A DNA stretch of 9,662 nt. It comes from a virus. Lineage: Duplodnaviria; Heunggongvirae; Uroviricota; Caudoviricetes. Where the stretch lies: IMG/VR virus record IMGVR_UViG_2826321507_000003; one strand, given 5' to 3'. The position numbers were made by a program, and so were the translations under genes. How positions within the stretch are numbered: position 1 is the first letter of the stretch; each line of letters starts with the position of its first letter. The notes beneath the pieces were generated by a model. That model was not told the DNA's origin. It made no database searches and saw only the letters and a program-made list of their open reading frames with translations. Shown here in pieces: positions 1 to 6,822 of the stretch.

Positions 1-396
1 CATTACCGTGATAACGCCATTACCTACAAAGCCCAGCGCGACAAAAATGTCAGAGAACTGAAGCTGGCGAACGCGGCAATTACTGACATGCAGATGCGTC
101 AGCGTGATGTTGCTGCGCTCGATGCAAAATACTCGAGGGAATTAGCCGATGCGAGAGCTGAAAATGAAACTCTTCGCGCTGACGTTGCCGCTGGTCGTAA
201 GCGCCTGCGTATCAACGCCACCTGTCCAGGTCCCGTGCGTGAAGCCACCGGCACCGCCCGCGTGGATAATGCAACCGGCCCCCGACTGGCAGACACCGTT
301 ACACGGGATTATTTCACCCTCAGAGAGCGGCTGATGACGATGCAGAAGCAACTGGAAGGGGCGCAGGAATATATCCGTACTCAGTGCCTGAAATAA
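1..396 (+). CDS. Rz: Rz-like i-spanin (inner-membrane spanin subunit), 5'-truncated by window edge
   Basis: Frame 1 is open from position 1 to the TAA at 394-396. The translation ([16 protein letters not shown]...[16 protein letters not shown]...[19 protein letters not shown]) is collinear with lambda Rz as I recall it, with high identity. Position immediately upstream of cos matches the lambda lysis-cassette layout. Confidence 0.9.
149..334 (+). CDS. Rz1: Rz1-like o-spanin (outer-membrane lipoprotein), embedded in the +1 frame of Rz
   Basis: 61-aa ORF wholly inside Rz in a different frame. It has a lipoprotein signal with lipobox LVVSAC and a proline-rich mature part ([30 protein letters not shown]) nearly identical to lambda Rz1 as recalled. 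The true start may be the second Met (KMKLF...). Confidence 0.85.
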
Positions 397-477
397 GTTT
401 TGTTGATGCGCCGTATCGTCGCTGTATTCCCTCATTAACAGAGACCGCAGCCCGACAGGGAGACTCCTCTGCGCGAG

Positions 478-492
478 NNNNNNNNNNNNNNN
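478..492. other. Run of 15 ambiguous bases (N): assembly gap or masked sequence of unknown true length
   Basis: Directly visible in the sequence. Reading frames cannot be trusted across it. Confidence 0.99.
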
Positions 493-517
493 GCGATGGT
501 GGAAGAAACCGGGATGT

Positions 518-712
518 TTATTCATCATCACTTTGGATTGATGTATATGCTCTCTTTTCTGACGTTAGTCTCCGACGGCAGGCTTCAATGACCCAGGCTG
601 AGAAATTCCCGGACCCTTTTTGCTCAAGAGCGATGTTAATTTGTTCAATCATTTGGTTAGGAAAGCGGATGTTGCGGGTTGTTGTTCTGCGGGTTCTGTT
701 CTTCGTTGACAT
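518..712 (-). CDS. Small ribbon-helix-helix (Arc/MetJ/CopG-like) putative DNA-binding protein, 64 aa
   Basis: Minus-strand ORF with ATG at 712-710 and TAA at 520-518. It has a basic N-terminus (KNRTRRTTTR) followed by RNIRFPNQMIEQINIALEQKGSGNFSAWVIEACRRRL, which fits a beta-strand/helix/helix RHH pattern. Small genes of this kind (possibly the DUF3950/YlcI type, which I cannot verify) occur between the lysis cassette and cos in lambdoid prophages. The ribosome-binding site is weak. Confidence 0.55.
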   Translation of the reverse strand: MSTKNRTRRTTTRNIRFPNQMIEQINIALEQKGSGNFSAWVIEACRRRLTSEKRAYTSIQSDDE

Positions 713-911
713 GAGGTTGCCCCGTATTCAGTGTCGCTGATTTGTATTGTCTGAAGTTGTTTTTACGTTAAGTTGATGCAGATCAATTAATACGATACCT
801 GCGTCATAATTGATTATTTGACGTAGTTTGATGGCGTAGATGCACGTTGTGACATGTAGATGATAATTATTATCATTTTGCGGGTCCTTTCCGGCGATCC
901 GACAGGTTACG

Positions 912-923
912 GGGCGGCGACCT
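912..923 (+). other. cosN: 12-nt cohesive-end sequence GGGCGGCGACCT, terminase nicking site
   Basis: The 12-mer is an exact match to the lambda cohesive end. The flanks (...GTCCTTTCCGG[C]GATCCGACAGGTTACG upstream and CGCGG(T)TTTTC(A)CTATTTATGAAAATTTT downstream) are nearly identical to the lambda right and left genome ends as I recall them. Confidence 0.85.
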
Positions 924-956
924 CGCGGTTTTTCACTATTTATGAAAATTTTTCAG

Positions 957-1073
957 GGAAAATCGTGTCGGTACTTCTCGAATATAACTTTTTGTTTTTT
1001 TTAATATTGCATCCGTAAAGGTCCGACATGAAAGTGTCCGAAAATGCCTTTTTCTGGCGTTTTCATGTCGGGC
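957..1073 (+). promoter_or_regulatory. cosB-like terminase small-subunit binding region with three R-site-like repeats (R3-like about 961-973, R2-like 1021-1033 inverted, R1-like 1061-1073) and an AT-rich bendable spacer
   Basis: Three copies of a shared core occur here: aaTCGTGTCGGta, the inverted GTCCGACATGAAA (reverse complement TTTCATGTCGGAC), and tTTCATGTCGGgc. They lie at about +49, +109 and +149 from cosN, with nu1 starting at +188. This mirrors lambda R3-I1-R2-R1 spacing and orientation. A T-rich tract at 990-1010 sits where the IHF site I1 would be. Confidence 0.6.
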
Positions 1074-1099
1074 CTTGTATTTGATAATGGGTTGTTTTC

Positions 1100-1648
1100 A
1101 TGAAGGTTAATAAAAAGAGGCTTGCCGAAATTTTCAACGTGGACCCGCGGACGATTGAACGCTGGCAGTCTCAGGGACTCCCTTGCGCCTCCAAAGGTAG
1201 TAAGGGCATTGAATCTGTATTTGATACTGCCATGGCAATTCAGTGGTATGCGCAGAGGGAAACTGATATCGAAAACGAAAAGCTCCGCAAAGAACTGGAC
1301 GATTTGCGTGCGGCAGCGGAGTCAGATTTACAACCCGGCACCATTGACTATGAACGCTACCGGCTCACAAAAGTGCAGGCAGATGCGCAGGAACTGAAAA
1401 ATGCCCGTGAAGACGGAGTAGTGCTGGAAACTGAACTGTTTACCTTCATTCTGCAACGTGTGGCACAGGAGATTTCGGGGATACTTGTGCGTGTGCCGTT
1501 GACATTACAGCGTAAATATCCGGACATTTCACCATCACACCTTGATGTGGTGAAAACTGAAATCGCGAAAGCCTCCAATGTTTCAGCTAAGGCCGGTGAA
1601 AACGTGGGCGGATGGATCGATGATTTCAGACGCGCAGAAGGCAGCTAA
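1100..1648 (+). CDS. nu1: Terminase small subunit (gpNu1-like), 182 aa
   Basis: The N-terminus [23 protein letters not shown] (winged-HTH region) and the run ENEKLRKEL...[14 protein letters not shown]...AQELKNARE are collinear with lambda Nu1 (181 aa). Position right after cos is as expected. Confidence 0.95.
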
Positions 1649-3548
1649 TGCAGCCGGTGCGATAGCTACAGGGCTTTTATCTCTCATTATTCCTGTTCCA
1701 CTGACGACAGTTCAGTGGGCCAATAAACATTATTACCTTCCTAAAGAGTCGTCTTATACCCCGGGGCGGTGGGAAACACTGCCGTTTCAGGTTGGCATCA
1801 TGAACTGTATGGGCAACGATCTGATTCGCACGGTTAACCTGATTAAATCTGCCCGTGTTGGTTATACAAAGATGTTGCTGGGAGTGGAGGCTTATTTTAT
1901 TGAGCATAAATCACGCAACAGCCTTCTTTTTCAGCCCACGGACTCAGCTGCTGAAGATTTTATGAAATCTCATGTTGAGCCAACGATAAGGGATGTTCCT
2001 GCATTGCTGGAGCTGGCTCCATGGTTCGGAAGAAAACACCGCGATAATACGCTCACCCTGAAGCGTTTTTCCTCCGGTGTGGGGTTCTGGTGTCTGGGTG
2101 GTGCGGCAGCAAAAAACTACCGTGAAAAATCCGTGGATGTGGTCTGTTATGACGAGCTTTCCTCGTTCGAACCGGATGTTGAAAAAGAGGGTTCGCCAAC
2201 CCTGCTGGGGGATAAACGTATTGAGGGCTCTGTATGGCCAAAATCCATTCGCGGCTCGACGCCTAAAATCAAAGGCTCCTGCCAGATCGAAAAAGCCGCT
2301 AACGAGTCGGCACACTTCATGCGTTTTTATGTGCCCTGTCCGCACTGTGGGGAGGAGCAGTATCTGAAATTTGGCGATGATGCCTCGCCTTTCGGTCTTA
2401 AGTGGGAGAAGAATAAGCCAGAAAGTGTTTTCTACCTTTGTGAGCATCATGGCTGTGTGATCCATCAGTCTGAGCTTGACCAGAGTAACGGGCGGTGGAT
2501 CTGTGAAAACACGGGCATGTGGACCCGTGACGGCCTGATGTTTTTCAGCGCCCGGGGTGATGAAATTCCGCCGCCGCGCTCCATCACTTTCCATATCTGG
2601 ACGGCGTACAGTCCGTTCACCACCTGGGTACAGATTGTCTATGACTGGCTGGATGCACTGAAAGATCCCAACGGCCTGAAAACCTTTGTGAACACCACGC
2701 TGGGCGAGACCTGGGAAGAGGCCGTGGGCGAAAAACTCGATCACCAGGTACTGATGGATAAGGTTGTGCGTTACACGACGGCGGTGCCTGCCCGGGTGGT
2801 TTATCTGACGGCGGGCATTGACTCGCAGCGAAACCGTTTTGAGATGTATGTCTGGGGATGGGCTCCGGGAGAGGAAGCCTTTCTGGTGGATAAAATCATC
2901 ATTATGGGGCGTCCCGATGAGGAAGAGACGCTATTACGTGTGGATGCGGCGATCAACAAAAAATACCGCCATGCAGACGGAACCGAAATGACTATTTCCC
3001 GTGTCTGCTGGGACATCGGGGGGATTGATGGCGAAATCGTTTATCAGAGGTCAAAAAAACACGGTGTTTTCCGGGTGCTGCCGGTAAAAGGCGCATCTGT
3101 CTATGGCAAGCCGGTGATCACCATGCCAAAAACCCGCAATCAGCGGGGCGTGTATCTGTGTGAAGTGGGGACGGACACCGCAAAAGAAATTCTCTATGCC
3201 CGTATGAAAGCCGATCCCACGCCTGTGGATGAAGCCACGTCGTATGCCATCCGTTTTCCTGATGATCCGGAGATTTTTTCGCAGACAGAGGCGCAGCAAC
3301 TGGTGGCGGAAGAGCTTGTGGAGAAGTGGGAAAAAGGAAAGATGCGTCTGCTGTGGGATAACAAAAAGCGGCGTAACGAAGCGCTGGACTGCCTGGTGTA
3401 TGCCTACGCGGCATTACGTGTGTCCGTGCAACGCTGGCAGCTTGATCTGGCTGTACTGGCAAAATCCCGGGAAGAAGAGACGACCCGGCCAACCCTTAAA
3501 GAACTGGCAGCGAAGCTGTCCGGAGGAGTGAATGGTTACAGTCGCTGA
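1620..3548 (+). CDS. A: Terminase large subunit (gpA-like: ATPase/translocase plus nuclease), about 642 aa
   Basis: Collinear with lambda gpA (641 aa) over its full length. Shared motifs include [22 protein letters not shown](T)[48 protein letters not shown] and [11 protein letters not shown] chose the ATG at 1620 over the ORF-track start at 1578 because it gives a lambda-like length and an overlap of about 29 nt with nu1. Confidence 0.93.
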
Positions 3549-3738
3549 ACTGCAGGCGCTGCGTCAGGCGCGCCTTGATTTATTAACCGGTAAACGGGTG
3601 GTGTCTGTCCAGAAAGATGGTCGCAGAATTGAATATACGGCAGCTTCTCTGGATGAGCTTAACCGGGCGATCAATGATGCGGAGTCGGTACTGGGGACAA
3701 CCCGCCGTCGCCGTCGTCCGCTGGGAGTGAGGTTATGA
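3532..3738 (+). CDS. W: Head completion / DNA-stabilisation protein (gpW-like), 68 aa
   Basis: Same 68-aa length as lambda W, with the conserved TGKRVVSVQKDGRRIEYTAAS and RRRR core. GGAGG lies 5 nt upstream of the ATG. The gene overlaps the 3' end of A. Confidence 0.9.
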   Translation: MVTVAELQALRQARLDLLTGKRVVSVQKDGRRIEYTAASLDELNRAINDAESVLGTTRRRRRPLGVRL

Positions 3739-5327
3739 AACGAACGCCTGTCCTGATTGATGTGAACGGCGTTCCGCTTCGGGAGAGCCTCAGCTACACC
3801 GGTGGCGGTGCAGGATTTGGCGGGCAAATGGCAGAGTGGTTGCCACCCTCGCAGAGTGCCGATGCGGCCCTGCTGCCCGCGTTGCGTCTGGGGAATGCCC
3901 GTGCAGATGATCTGGTGCGCAATAACGGAATAGCGGCCAATGCGGTGGCACTGCATAAGGATCACATTGTCGGGCATATGTTTCTGATTAGCTACCGTCC
4001 GAACTGGCGCTGGCTGGGGATGCGGGAGACCGCGGCAAAAAGTTTTGTCGATGAGGTGGAGGCGGCCTGGTCAGAATACGCAGAAGGGATGTTTGGTGAG
4101 ATCGACGTGGAAGGGAAACGCACGTTTACGGAATTTATCCGTGAAGGTGTGGGCGTTCATGCGTTTAACGGCGAAATCTTTGTGCAGCCGGTCTGGGATA
4201 CGGAGAGTACGCAACTGTTTCGTACGCGTTTTAAAGCCGTGAGTCCGAAACGGGTGGACACGCCAGGACACGGTATGGGGAACCGTTTTCTGCGGGCTGG
4301 TGTGGAGGTTGATCGATATGGCCGTGCCGTTGCGTACCATATCTGTGAGGATGATTTTCCTCGCTCCGGGAGTGGACGATGGGAACGGATCCCGCGTGAA
4401 CTACCCACCGGGCGTCCGGCCATGCTGCATATTTTCGAGCCGGTGGAGGACGGGCAGACCCGTGGAGCCAATCAGTTTTACAGCGTTATGGAACGGCTGA
4501 AGATGCTGGATTCCCTGCAGGCAACACAGCTTCAGTCGGCCATAGTGAAGGCGATGTATGCAGCGACGATTGAAAGTGACCTTGATACCGAAAAGGCCTT
4601 TGAATATATCGCCGGTGCGCCGCAGGGGCAGAAGGATAATCCGCTTATTAATATTCTGGATAAGTTCTCCACCTGGTATGACACGAATAGCGTGACGCTG
4701 GGCGGTGTCAAAATTCCGCACCTTTTCCCCGGTGATGATCTGAAACTTCAGACCGCGCAGGATTCAGACAATGGATTTTCGGCGCTTGAACAGGCGCTGC
4801 TGCGGTATATCGCCGCCGGTCTTGGCGTTTCCTACGAACAGTTGTCCCGTGATTACTCGAAGGTCAGTTATTCAAGTGCCCGCGCATCCGCCAATGAGTC
4901 GTGGCGCTATTTTATGGGGCGGCGAAAATTTATTGCGTCCCGGCTGGCCACGCAGATGTTTTCCTGCTGGCTGGAAGAGGCACTTCTTCGGGGGATTATT
5001 CGTCCGCCACGGGCACGTTTTGATTTTTATCAGGCGCGATCAGCCTGGTCACGGGCTGAGTGGATTGGAGCCGGAAGAATGGCCATTGACGGGCTCAAGG
5101 AGGTTCAGGAATCAGTGATGCGCATTGAGGCCGGACTGAGCACGTATGAGAAAGAGCTGGCGCTGATGGGCGAGGATTATCAGGACATTTTCCGCCAGCA
5201 GGTCAGGGAATCTGCAGAGCGGGAAAAAGCCGGACTCTCACGTCCGGTGTGGATAGCGCAGGCGTATCAGCAGCAGATAGCGGAGAGTCGCAGGCCGGAA
5301 GAGGAGACAACACCACGTGAGACGTAA
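3735..5327 (+). CDS. B: Portal protein (gpB-like), 530 aa
   Basis: Collinear with lambda gpB (533 aa). Shared motifs include GNARADDLVRNNG, HAFNGE(I/L)FVQ, FEPVEDGQTRGAN, LQSAIVKAMYAATIES, LLRYIAAGLGVSYEQLSR and GRMAIDGLKEVQE. There is an ATGA start/stop overlap with W. Confidence 0.95.
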   Translation: MKRTPVLIDVNGVPLRESLSYTGGGAGFGGQMAEWLPPSQSADAALLPALRLGNARADDLVRNNGIAANAVALHKDHIVGHMFLISYRPNWRWLGMRETAAKSFVDEVEAAWSEYAEGMFGEIDVEGKRTFTEFIREGVGVHAFNGEIFVQPVWDTESTQLFRTRFKAVSPKRVDTPGHGMGNRFLRAGVEVDRYGRAVAYHICEDDFPRSGSGRWERIPRELPTGRPAMLHIFEPVEDGQTRGANQFYSVMERLKMLDSLQATQLQSAIVKAMYAATIESDLDTEKAFEYIAGAPQGQKDNPLINILDKFSTWYDTNSVTLGGVKIPHLFPGDDLKLQTAQDSDNGFSALEQALLRYIAAGLGVSYEQLSRDYSKVSYSSARASANESWRYFMGRRKFIASRLATQMFSCWLEEALLRGIIRPPRARFDFYQARSAWSRAEWIGAGRMAIDGLKEVQESVMRIEAGLSTYEKELALMGEDYQDIFRQQVRESAEREKAGLSRPVWIAQAYQQQIAESRRPEEETTPRET

Positions 5328-6822
5328 TCTTTCACACATTATTGCCGCAGCATTCAATGAACCGCTGCTTCTGGAGCCCGCCTATGCGCGGGTTTTCTTT
5401 TGCGCGCTCGGGCGCGAGATGGGCGCAGCAAGTCTTTCGGTACCACAACAGCAGGTACAGCTTGATGCTCCCGGAATGCTGGCTGAAACGGACGAGTACA
5501 TGGCCGGAGGTAAACGACCGGCCCGTGTTTACCGGGTGGTGAACGGTATTGCGGTACTGCCGGTGACCGGCACGCTGGTGCACCGGCTGGGGGGGATGCG
5601 GCCATTTTCCGGAATGACTGGCTATGACGGCATTGTCGCCTGTCTTCAGCAGGCAATGGCAGATAGCCAGGTGCGGGGCATACTGCTGGACATTGACAGT
5701 CCGGGTGGGCAGGCCGCCGGCGCGTTTGACTGCGCTGACATGATTTACCGCCTCCGTCAGCAGAAGCCGGTCTGGGCACTGTGCAATGACACGGCCTGTT
5801 CTGCAGCCATGCTGCTGGCGTCGGCCTGCTCCCGACGGCTGGTTACCCAGACATCCCGTATCGGCTCCATTGGCGTGATGATGAGCCATGTCAGCTATGC
5901 CGGTCATCTGGCGCAGGCCGGTGTGGATATCACGCTGATTTATGCCGGGGCGCACAAGGTGGATGGCAATCAGTTTGAAGCGTTGCCGGCAGAGGTTCGC
6001 CAGGATATGCAGCAGCGGATTGATGCGGCGCACCGGATGTTTGCCGAAAAAGTGGCGATGTATACCGGGTTGTCTGTGGATGCGGTCACGGGAACAGAGG
6101 CCGCCGTTTTTGAAGGTCAGTCCGGCATTGAGGCCGGGCTGGCGGATGAATTAATCAATGCGTCGGATGCCATCAGTGTGATGGCCACGGCGCTGAACAG
6201 TAATGTCAGAGGAGGCACTATGCCGCAATTAACTGCAACGGAAGCCGCCGTGCAGGAGAACCAGCGAGTGATGGGGATCCTGACATGCCAGGAAGCGAAA
6301 GGACGTGAACAGCTTGCCACGATGCTGGCAGGGCAACAGGGCATGAGCGTTGAACAGGCCCGGGCGATTCTGGCCGCGGCGGCACCGCAGCAGCCGGTGG
6401 CATCCGCGCAGAGTGAAGCCGATCGCATTATGGCGTGTGAAGAAGCGAACGGTCGTGAACAACTGGCAGCAACGCTGGCGGCGATGCCGGAGATGACGGT
6501 GGAAAAAGCCCGCCCGATCCTGGCTGCTTCACCGCAGGCGAATGCCGGACCATCACTCCGTGATCAGATCATGGCACTGGATGAGGCAAAAGGGGCTGAG
6601 GCGCAGGCTGAACAGCTGGCTGCCTGCCCGGGAATGACCGTGGAGAGCGCCCGGGCTGTGCTGGCTGCGGGATCAGGTAAGGCAGAACCGGTCTCTGCAT
6701 CCACAACCGCCCTGTTTGAACATTTCATGGCGAATCATTCACCGGCAGCGGTGCGGGGTGGCGTGTCACAGACGTCAGCAGACGGTGATGCGGACGTGAA
6801 AATGCTCATGGCCATGCCATGA
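5317..6822 (+). CDS. C: Head maturation protease / scaffold fusion (gpC-like, S49 peptidase family), 501 aa, GTG start
   Basis: The N-terminal two-thirds is collinear with lambda gpC (AFNEPLLLEPAYARVFFCAL, GMTGY, GAFDCAD, KPVWAL, RRLVTQT, GSIGVMM, ITLIYAG, HKVDGN, GLADEL). GTG at 5317 is preceded by GAGGAG. It is longer than lambda C (439 aa) because of an expanded C-terminal repeat region. Confidence 0.9.
   Translation: MRRNLSHIIAAAFNEPLLLEPAYARVFFCALGREMGAASLSVPQQQVQLDAPGMLAETDEYMAGGKRPARVYRVVNGIAVLPVTGTLVHRLGGMRPFSGMTGYDGIVACLQQAMADSQVRGILLDIDSPGGQAAGAFDCADMIYRLRQQKPVWALCNDTACSAAMLLASACSRRLVTQTSRIGSIGVMMSHVSYAGHLAQAGVDITLIYAGAHKVDGNQFEALPAEVRQDMQQRIDAAHRMFAEKVAMYTGLSVDAVTGTEAAVFEGQSGIEAGLADELINASDAISVMATALNSNVRGGTMPQLTATEAAVQENQRVMGILTCQEAKGREQLATMLAGQQGMSVEQARAILAAAAPQQPVASAQSEADRIMACEEANGREQLAATLAAMPEMTVEKARPILAASPQANAGPSLRDQIMALDEAKGAEAQAEQLAACPGMTVESARAVLAAGSGKAEPVSASTTALFEHFMANHSPAAVRGGVSQTSADGDADVKMLMAMP
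6220..6822 (+). CDS. nu3: Nu3-like scaffolding protein from an in-frame internal start within C (nested gene), about 200 aa
   Basis: An internal ATG at 6220 is in the C frame and preceded by GAGGAGG (6209-6215). It lies at the position equivalent to the recalled lambda segment GGRMTKETQ. The downstream sequence carries the Nu3-type motif IMGIL.C.EA.GRE. The start assignment is inferred, not proven. Confidence 0.55.
   Translation: MPQLTATEAAVQENQRVMGILTCQEAKGREQLATMLAGQQGMSVEQARAILAAAAPQQPVASAQSEADRIMACEEANGREQLAATLAAMPEMTVEKARPILAASPQANAGPSLRDQIMALDEAKGAEAQAEQLAACPGMTVESARAVLAAGSGKAEPVSASTTALFEHFMANHSPAAVRGGVSQTSADGDADVKMLMAMP
6262..6678 (+). repeat. Three tandem, diverged copies (each about 40-45 codons) of the scaffold motif within the C/nu3 C-terminus
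   Basis: Unit 1 is about 6262-6390 (QRVMGILTCQEAKGREQLATMLAGQQGMSVEQARAILAAAAPQ). Unit 2 is about 6421-6537 (DRIMACEEANGREQLAATLAAMPEMTVEKARPILAASPQ). Unit 3 is about 6559-6678 (DQIMALDEAKGAEAQAEQLAACPGMTVESARAVLAAGSG). DNA similarity between units is partial (for example ATGAGCGTTGAACAGGCCCGGGCGATTCTGGC versus ATGACGGTGGAAAAAGCCCGCCCGATCCTGGC versus ATGACCGTGGAGAGCGCCCGGGCTGTGCTGGC). Confidence 0.7.

Follow-up and report, generated by a model that had tools for sequence, protein, structure and literature searches.

The run of 15 N between the lysis cassette and cos was best explained as a repeat-induced scaffold gap over approximately 87 bp of non-coding sequence (range seen, 71 to 90 bp) without cargo, a reading to which a probability of about 0.8 was assigned. 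The window (the whole stretch of 9,662 nucleotides analysed here) spans, as judged from its sequence, the lysis-to-head region of a lambda-like prophage. In its relatives, the 87 bp form the core of an element of approximately 180 nt, which occupies window positions 407-514 once the gap is filled.

The features of the window and the element copies located elsewhere are listed in Table 1. The N run comprised exactly 15 letters, and no other N was present anywhere in the window; such a run is an assembler's statement and never a chance feature. An earlier note on this DNA had described an unresolved 15-N gap between the lysis cassette and cos, and its placement was reproduced, with N at 478-492, the Rz stop at 396 and cos at 912-923. 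Window 501-911 was matched by blastn to lambda 48092-48502, the last 411 bp of lambda DNA (96.1% over 411 nt), and is followed by the lambda-type 12-nt cohesive end GGGCGGCGACCT, a single exact match. Downstream of Nu1, gpA, W, portal B, protease C, D, E and FI were assigned with Pfam. The mechanical ORF of the large terminase (1578-3548) comprised 656 aa, while relatives call a protein of 642 aa (window 1620-3548; L005 3521-5449). The ATG at 1578, further upstream, is unlikely to be the true start.

Table 1. Coordinates of features in the window and of element copies in other records. Positions are those of the window unless another record is named.
Feature	Coordinates	Strand	Basis or context
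Rz i-spanin gene, 3' part (end of lysis cassette)	1..396	+	Pfam PF03245 Phage_lysis, E = 2e-50; stop at 396
Element, first 71 nt: 5' strands of P1-P3 and complete P4-P5	407..477	+	A1, A2, model R1
Scaffold gap of 15 N, probably ~87 bp: 3' strands of P1-P3, variable middle hairpin, 5' strand of P7	478..492		
Element, last 22 nt: conserved 15-nt loop and 3' strand of P7	493..514	+	
Homologue of the lambda right end, then cohesive end (cos region)	501..923	+	blastn and exact match
ylcI/ynfO-family gene (DUF3950), 64 aa	518..712	-	Pfam PF13132, E = 2e-20; RefSeq annotation in relatives
Nu1 small terminase, start of packaging/head module	1100..1648	+	Pfam PF07471, E = 2e-80
Element copy, lambda	lambda 46868-47033		between bor and lambdap78; covariance model R1, full length
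Element copy, K-12 DLP12	NC_000913 579009-579175		between borD and ybcV; covariance model R1, full length
Further element copies	L135 1511-1691; L138 1495-1674		

Relatives that span the gap were retrieved by an exact-protein look-up of the window's Nu1. This yielded six contiguous records (L005-L010), five of which come from contigs of 4.3 to 4.8 Mb. Window 1-477 was 99.8 to 100% identical to these records and window 493-4600 was 98.7 to 99.98% identical. On the right flank the closest were L005, L006 and L009 (99.95 to 99.98%), and L007, L008 and L010 stood at 98.7%. For L005, window 1-477 corresponds to positions 1830-2306 (99.8% identity), window 407-477 is identical or near-identical to 2236-2306, window 493 corresponds to 2394 and the element ends at 2415. 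The two flanks were collinear and on the same strand in all six records, separated by a spacer of exactly 87 bp in each; the scaffold therefore joins the flanks correctly and understates the distance between them by 72 bp. The 87-bp fill was the same in L005, L006, L008 and L009 and differed by one base in L007 and L010. In the closest closed relatives it reads TGTGCGGGGATAATCAAAAACGATACACACCGGGGTTTACCGCGTTAACGGAGCGCGGCGTTGTCCCCTCATAGTCGCCTGTCCGGT. We infer from these relatives that the window's own genome carries the same 87 bp. A gap-closing product is expected to contain TGTGCGGGGATAATC...CCTGTCCGGT and to exceed the length given by the window coordinates by 72 bp. The caution raised earlier over the true length of the N run was borne out by the 87 bp of the relatives.

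Both flanks together were found in no record among 5426 complete E. coli genomes, and the left-to-right join was present only in the six records of the Nu1 look-up. The best complete E. coli relatives (L001-L004) had one side only in common with the window, or contained extra inserts. The left flank was of the L002/L003 mosaic type and the right flank of the type seen in L001 and in L004, which carries a DLP12-like prophage. Between the two flank positions, L001-L004 had 84 to 87 bp of conserved sequence.

Spacer lengths in other collections were scanned with anchors of 14 and 15 nt taken from the window's flanks. Anchors 70 to 100 bp apart were found in at least 120 IMG/VR contigs (viral_contigs): the spacer was 87 bp in approximately 110 contigs, 71 or 72 bp in seven, 86 bp in one and 90 bp in one. 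Unlike viral_contigs, genome_contigs gave no match at 70 to 100 bp. A spacer of 5 to 35 bp occurred in no contig of either collection, and one of 36 to 66 bp in no contig of viral_contigs.

The coding content of the gap was assessed in the gap-free relatives. Two mechanical ORFs cross the N run, 142..531(-) of 129 aa and 384..740(+) of 118 aa. Neither was kept as a conserved ORF in the gap-free relatives, and both are artefacts of reading through N. Distrust of every ORF crossing 478-492, already advised in the earlier note, was accordingly justified. In L005, the ORFs of at least 20 aa overlapping the 87 bp were mechanical ones of 55, 41 and 29 aa, plus one of 121 aa antisense to Rz. RefSeq had no annotation over the 87 bp. 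A minus-strand TAA at 437-435 had been proposed as the end of a gene with its body in the gap. The stop itself was present (TTA at 435-437 on the plus strand), but the proposed gene body was not supported: in a gap-free relative the frame that ends there is open for 28 codons, and its sole start, a TTG, leaves 18. A bor-like moron in the gap was also considered and rejected, as no conserved ORF of plausible length and no coding signal were present. It had further been anticipated that a gap free of cargo would close with about 15 bp and no additional ORF. The relatives' fill held no such ORF, but its size was 87 bp and not 15.

The slot between Rz and cos had been described as a hot spot for accessory genes, and its contents in relatives agree with this description. 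They comprised bor/iss and an IS3 (L004), a 478-bp insert with a 46-aa ORF (L002/L003), ybcV-ybcW (DLP12), several genes (phage 21), and a TonB-C-terminal gene or rha. The position is that of the bor/moron slot of lambda, in which relatives hold bor/iss and other accessory DNA; this prophage differs in having no bor, and its slot consists of the non-coding element and ylcI only. The ylcI/ynfO gene, which the earlier note had missed, is the only protein gene of the Rz-cos slot in this prophage. An intact homologue of 64 aa was also observed in lambda just left of cos, at complement(48109..48303), equivalent to L139 2710-2904. It is identical to the window protein at 61 of 64 residues and has no entry in the feature table of NC_001416.1.

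A sequence of events that would produce the gap can be proposed as follows. The element of approximately 180 nt, non-coding, would sit straight after Rz in this lambda-like prophage, and other lambdoid prophages of the same host would carry copies of it with different flanks. The assembly graph would then branch at the common sequence, short-read contigs would end inside the element, and the scaffolder would join two contigs in the right order across a short N run of arbitrary length. Three Logan short-read contigs (L011-L013) begin 38 to 45 nt before window 493, within the hidden 87 bp. Among 5426 complete E. coli genomes, 2482 contained the element, which occupied 6074 places in total and up to 10 in one genome. 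Because short-read contigs end inside the 87 bp and the element is multi-copy in E. coli, a contig break induced by a repeat is the best reading of the gap. The longest contig with this Nu1 was shorter than 10 kb in 201 of 217 collection blocks, and several IMG genomes had two prophage contigs each, both with the element. The same properties are shown by scaffold gaps that arise in short-read assemblies of enterobacteria where a prophage repeat is multi-copy: the flanks are collinear, the segment is found in closed genomes, the missing sequence is multi-copy and independent contigs end there. The sole difference here is the stated length of 15 against a likely true length of 87. An estimate of 15 by the scaffolder would fall somewhat wide of a true 87, which speaks against the scaffold-gap reading, as does the absence of the left-to-right join from the 5426 complete E. 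coli genomes.

Three other explanations of the N run were weighed against a repeat-induced break. The number of N on record, 15, could be the true spacer if a 72-bp deletion had removed the element core in this genome, and natural variants shortened to 71 or 72 bp do exist. This is nevertheless very unlikely, since the anchors were 5 to 35 bp apart in no contig of genome_contigs or viral_contigs and 36 to 66 bp apart in no contig of viral_contigs, and known sequence would not be given as N. An insertion sequence within the element of this genome, like the IS3 inside the element in L004, might have broken the contig instead; contigs classically end at IS copies, and IS1 fragments lie near the site in the closest relatives. 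An insertion of this kind does not explain 87 missing bases, however, because after a simple insertion the flanks would be expected to abut in the relatives (bar the target duplication), where 87 bp in fact lie between them. None of the six contiguous relatives had an IS at the site, and the insertion was judged as improbable as the short spacer. A moron or accessory gene concealed by the gap, for example a minus-strand gene ending at the TAA at 437-435, would suit a slot into which relatives (L004, L002/L003, DLP12, phage 21) have taken up cargo. That possibility, raised in the earlier note, is contradicted by the six contiguous assemblies of the same prophage, all of which had only 87 non-coding bp, and by a frame that stays open for 28 codons only. 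The relatives' cargo moreover lies to the left (bor) or to the right (ybcV-ybcW, the 478-bp insert) of the element and outside its 87-bp core, the IS3 being the one exception. Hidden cargo was rated highly improbable, slightly more so than the deletion or the insertion. With a repeat-induced break as the preferred reading, the suspected hidden gene is removed and little else is at stake for the gap itself. For annotators, ORFs across 478-492 are artefacts and approximately 72 bp are absent from the coordinates; the element would be a recurrent source of contig breaks in prophage-rich genomes.

The distribution of the element was examined by blastn, which detected it in 398 phage records. Its hosts were lambdoid phages of Escherichia, Shigella and Salmonella. 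Carriers included Stx1 and Stx2 phages (VT2-Sakai, Stx2 II, phiON-2011), phages 21 and 434, mEp460 and lambda-like isolates, and the Salmonella phages ES18, SPN3UB and S137. The copies in lambda and in K-12 DLP12 scored 110.9 and 116.9 bits with R1, had the same orientation to Rz as the window's copy and were unannotated in their records. They differed from it in the sequences of the middle hairpin and the P7 loop, and in coming after bor, whereas the window's copy comes directly after Rz.

The element always separated the lysis cassette from the packaging module, and its orientation relative to the Rz and terminase genes was constant across the loci checked for it. Its 5' neighbours were Rz, bor, rha or other genes. 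On the 3' side it was followed by terS after 105 to 115 nt (Stx phages examined), by cosQ directly, or by minus-strand morons (ylcI, ybcV/p78) and then cos. Its edges were sharp, with at least eight different sequences on each side. In six records (L104, L055, L065, L077, L041 and L018, the last at 6007-6185), cosQ/cosN was observed within approximately 40 to 60 nt of the element with no ylcI between, so no other feature need follow the element at the right end of virion DNA.

Several observations were made at the edges of individual copies. The lambda p78-p79 and DLP12 ybcV-ybcW inserts were bracketed by GGAAGAAACCGG, the 3' end of the element, and by GGAAGAACGCGG, a degenerate repeat of this end (L139 1620-1634 and 2690-2706; L179 3662-3676 and 4732-4748), which suggests that morons enter via recombination at the element's edge. 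The IMG/VR contig L018 contained two copies (5030-5267 and 6007-6185) approximately 950 bp apart, the first with an 18-nt palindrome, GTGCGACCGTGGTCGCAC, on both sides. In L004 (DLP12-like prophage, E. coli E2865), an IS3-family element with an ALIL frameshift pseudoknot split the element in two (1034-1209, 1195-2408, 2429-2522).

Conservation of secondary structure was evaluated on two alignments. A1 was a structure-blind MAFFT alignment of 26 distinct copies, and A2 contained 46 distinct copies and was fitted to the model. The model comprised seven helices with 42 base pairs: P1-P5 form a long irregular hairpin, the middle hairpin is always present although its sequence varies, and P7 is a hairpin with a conserved loop of 15 nt. 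Standard pairs filled 96.6% of cells in A1 and 97.0% in A2; after the partners were slid, 34 to 62% and 34 to 60% of cells, respectively, were paired. Pairs changed on both sides numbered 10 in A1 and 14 in A2, compensatory events that were limited to perhaps six to eight lineages. With slid partners, the corresponding numbers were at most 5 in A1 and 2 to 5 in A2, with the exception of 10 at an offset of +3. The observed covariation score was reached by 0 of 500 shuffles in each alignment. In P7, CCGG/CCGG was replaced by CCUG/CAGG or CUCGA/UCGAG, and in the inner stem of the middle hairpin CCGCG/CGCGG was replaced by CUGUG/CGCAG, CAGC/GCUG or UCUC/GAGA. One pair of P2 had C-G, A-U, U-A and U-G variants.

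The strand of the structure was addressed through wobble pairs. Read on the plus strand, G.U pairs outnumbered A.C by 98 to 10 in A1 and by 180 to 27 in A2, and canonical pairing was 97% of cells on the plus strand against 88 to 89% on the minus strand. This asymmetry favours the plus strand. The lambda pR' late transcript passes S, R and Rz and then runs across cos into Nu1; the plus strand is the strand of this transcript.

Single-sequence folding energies were unremarkable relative to shuffled sequence (z = -0.49 on the plus strand and +0.56 on the minus strand). This counts against the RNA reading, as do the small number of lineages with compensatory change and the fitting of A2 to the model. 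A search of Rfam 15 returned no family match over the element at the gathering threshold; at E ≤ 10 there was a chance-level match only, to a snoRNA family (E = 8.8), and four diverse element copies gave none at E ≤ 1. Two candidate structures were rejected. A long-range helix proposed by RNAalifold (A1 columns 100-106 with 159-165) is broken by the CCUG/CAGG and CUCGA/UCGAG variants, which preserve the local P7. The idea of an intrinsic terminator serving ylcI or the late strand was discarded, as a consensus scan gave no terminator-like site in the element and the P7 loop is 15 nt long. Overall, the odds lean slightly towards the element being a functional, structured RNA in the late transcript. 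The fuller proposal, that the element is a structured late-operon RNA, cis-acting or processed, and hitherto undescribed, is put forward tentatively and at somewhat under even odds. A literature search found no description of the element, which does not prove that none exists.

Two other readings of the element were compared with that of a structured RNA. The element might act at the level of DNA, as a module junction for homologous recombination, or belong to the minus strand as a 3' UTR or promoter of ylcI, ybcV or bor, and not be an RNA element at all. Its sharp boundaries with at least eight contexts per side fit a junction, as do the window's own mosaic, in which a left side of the L003 type meets a right side of the DLP12 type at the element, and the p78-p79 / ybcV-ybcW insert, on whose flank the 3' end of the element is repeated. 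To the right of the element, the minus-strand genes ylcI, lambda p78 and ybcV end at a distance of 4 to 9 nt from its edge; to the left, bor starts at 116 to 180 nt. However, double compensatory changes within helices would not be expected of a recombination linker, and a minus-strand role is disfavoured by the wobble pattern (88 to 89% canonical cells, against 97% on the plus strand) and by the Sepvirinae loci examined (VT2-Sakai, phiON-2011), which had no annotated minus-strand gene beside the element. These readings together form the main alternative and were considered unlikely, though not negligible. That the element is a small-protein gene was considered extremely improbable. Depositors have annotated ORFs over it (VT2-Sakai orf48, Stx2 II ORF C87, mEp460 gp59) and L003/L005 contain a GTG ORF of 55 aa, but these annotated ORFs disagree in frame, strand and extent. 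None of the frames stayed open in every one of the 46 distinct copies. The copies were 164 to 183 nt long, 16 of the 46 not being a multiple of 3, with length differences that break the frame, and variability was flat over codon positions (0.130, 0.137 and 0.141). With no coding signal in 46 distinct copies, the small-protein reading was rejected.

Mutually inconsistent hypothetical proteins were annotated over the element in several deposited phage records (L135 1488-1748; L140 1493-1738; L142 1595-1843; L136 1488-1601), and one such ORF bears the label 'Rz-like spanin'. The hypothetical-protein annotations are probably spurious.

If the element is a structured RNA, our best guess is a putative role in cis on the late mRNA at the border between lysis and packaging, where it may affect processing, stability or the translation of its neighbours, perhaps by providing a translational context for the module downstream. 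The HK022 put RNA is a cis-acting structured RNA of phage operons. The predicted element would, like it, act on the coding strand as part of a long phage transcript, but it differs in position and architecture and matches no Rfam family at E ≤ 1 to 10. A second comparison is offered by AgvB and AsxR, anti-sRNAs of EHEC prophages that are 51 to 60 nt long, lie 3' of pR' in the moron site between Q and S, and bind Hfq (PMC4104026). These non-coding RNAs share with the element a conserved place in lambdoid prophages, but the element, of approximately 180 nt, follows the lysis cassette and matches no Rfam family.

The element is the one item of this region worth following up. It is a cheap and testable lead for the biology of late-operon RNA. 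It could matter more than the gap itself: lambda is among the best-studied genomes, and this conserved element with RNA-type covariation, unannotated in RefSeq and absent from Rfam, is present in lambda, in K-12, in Stx phages and in almost half of the complete E. coli genomes.
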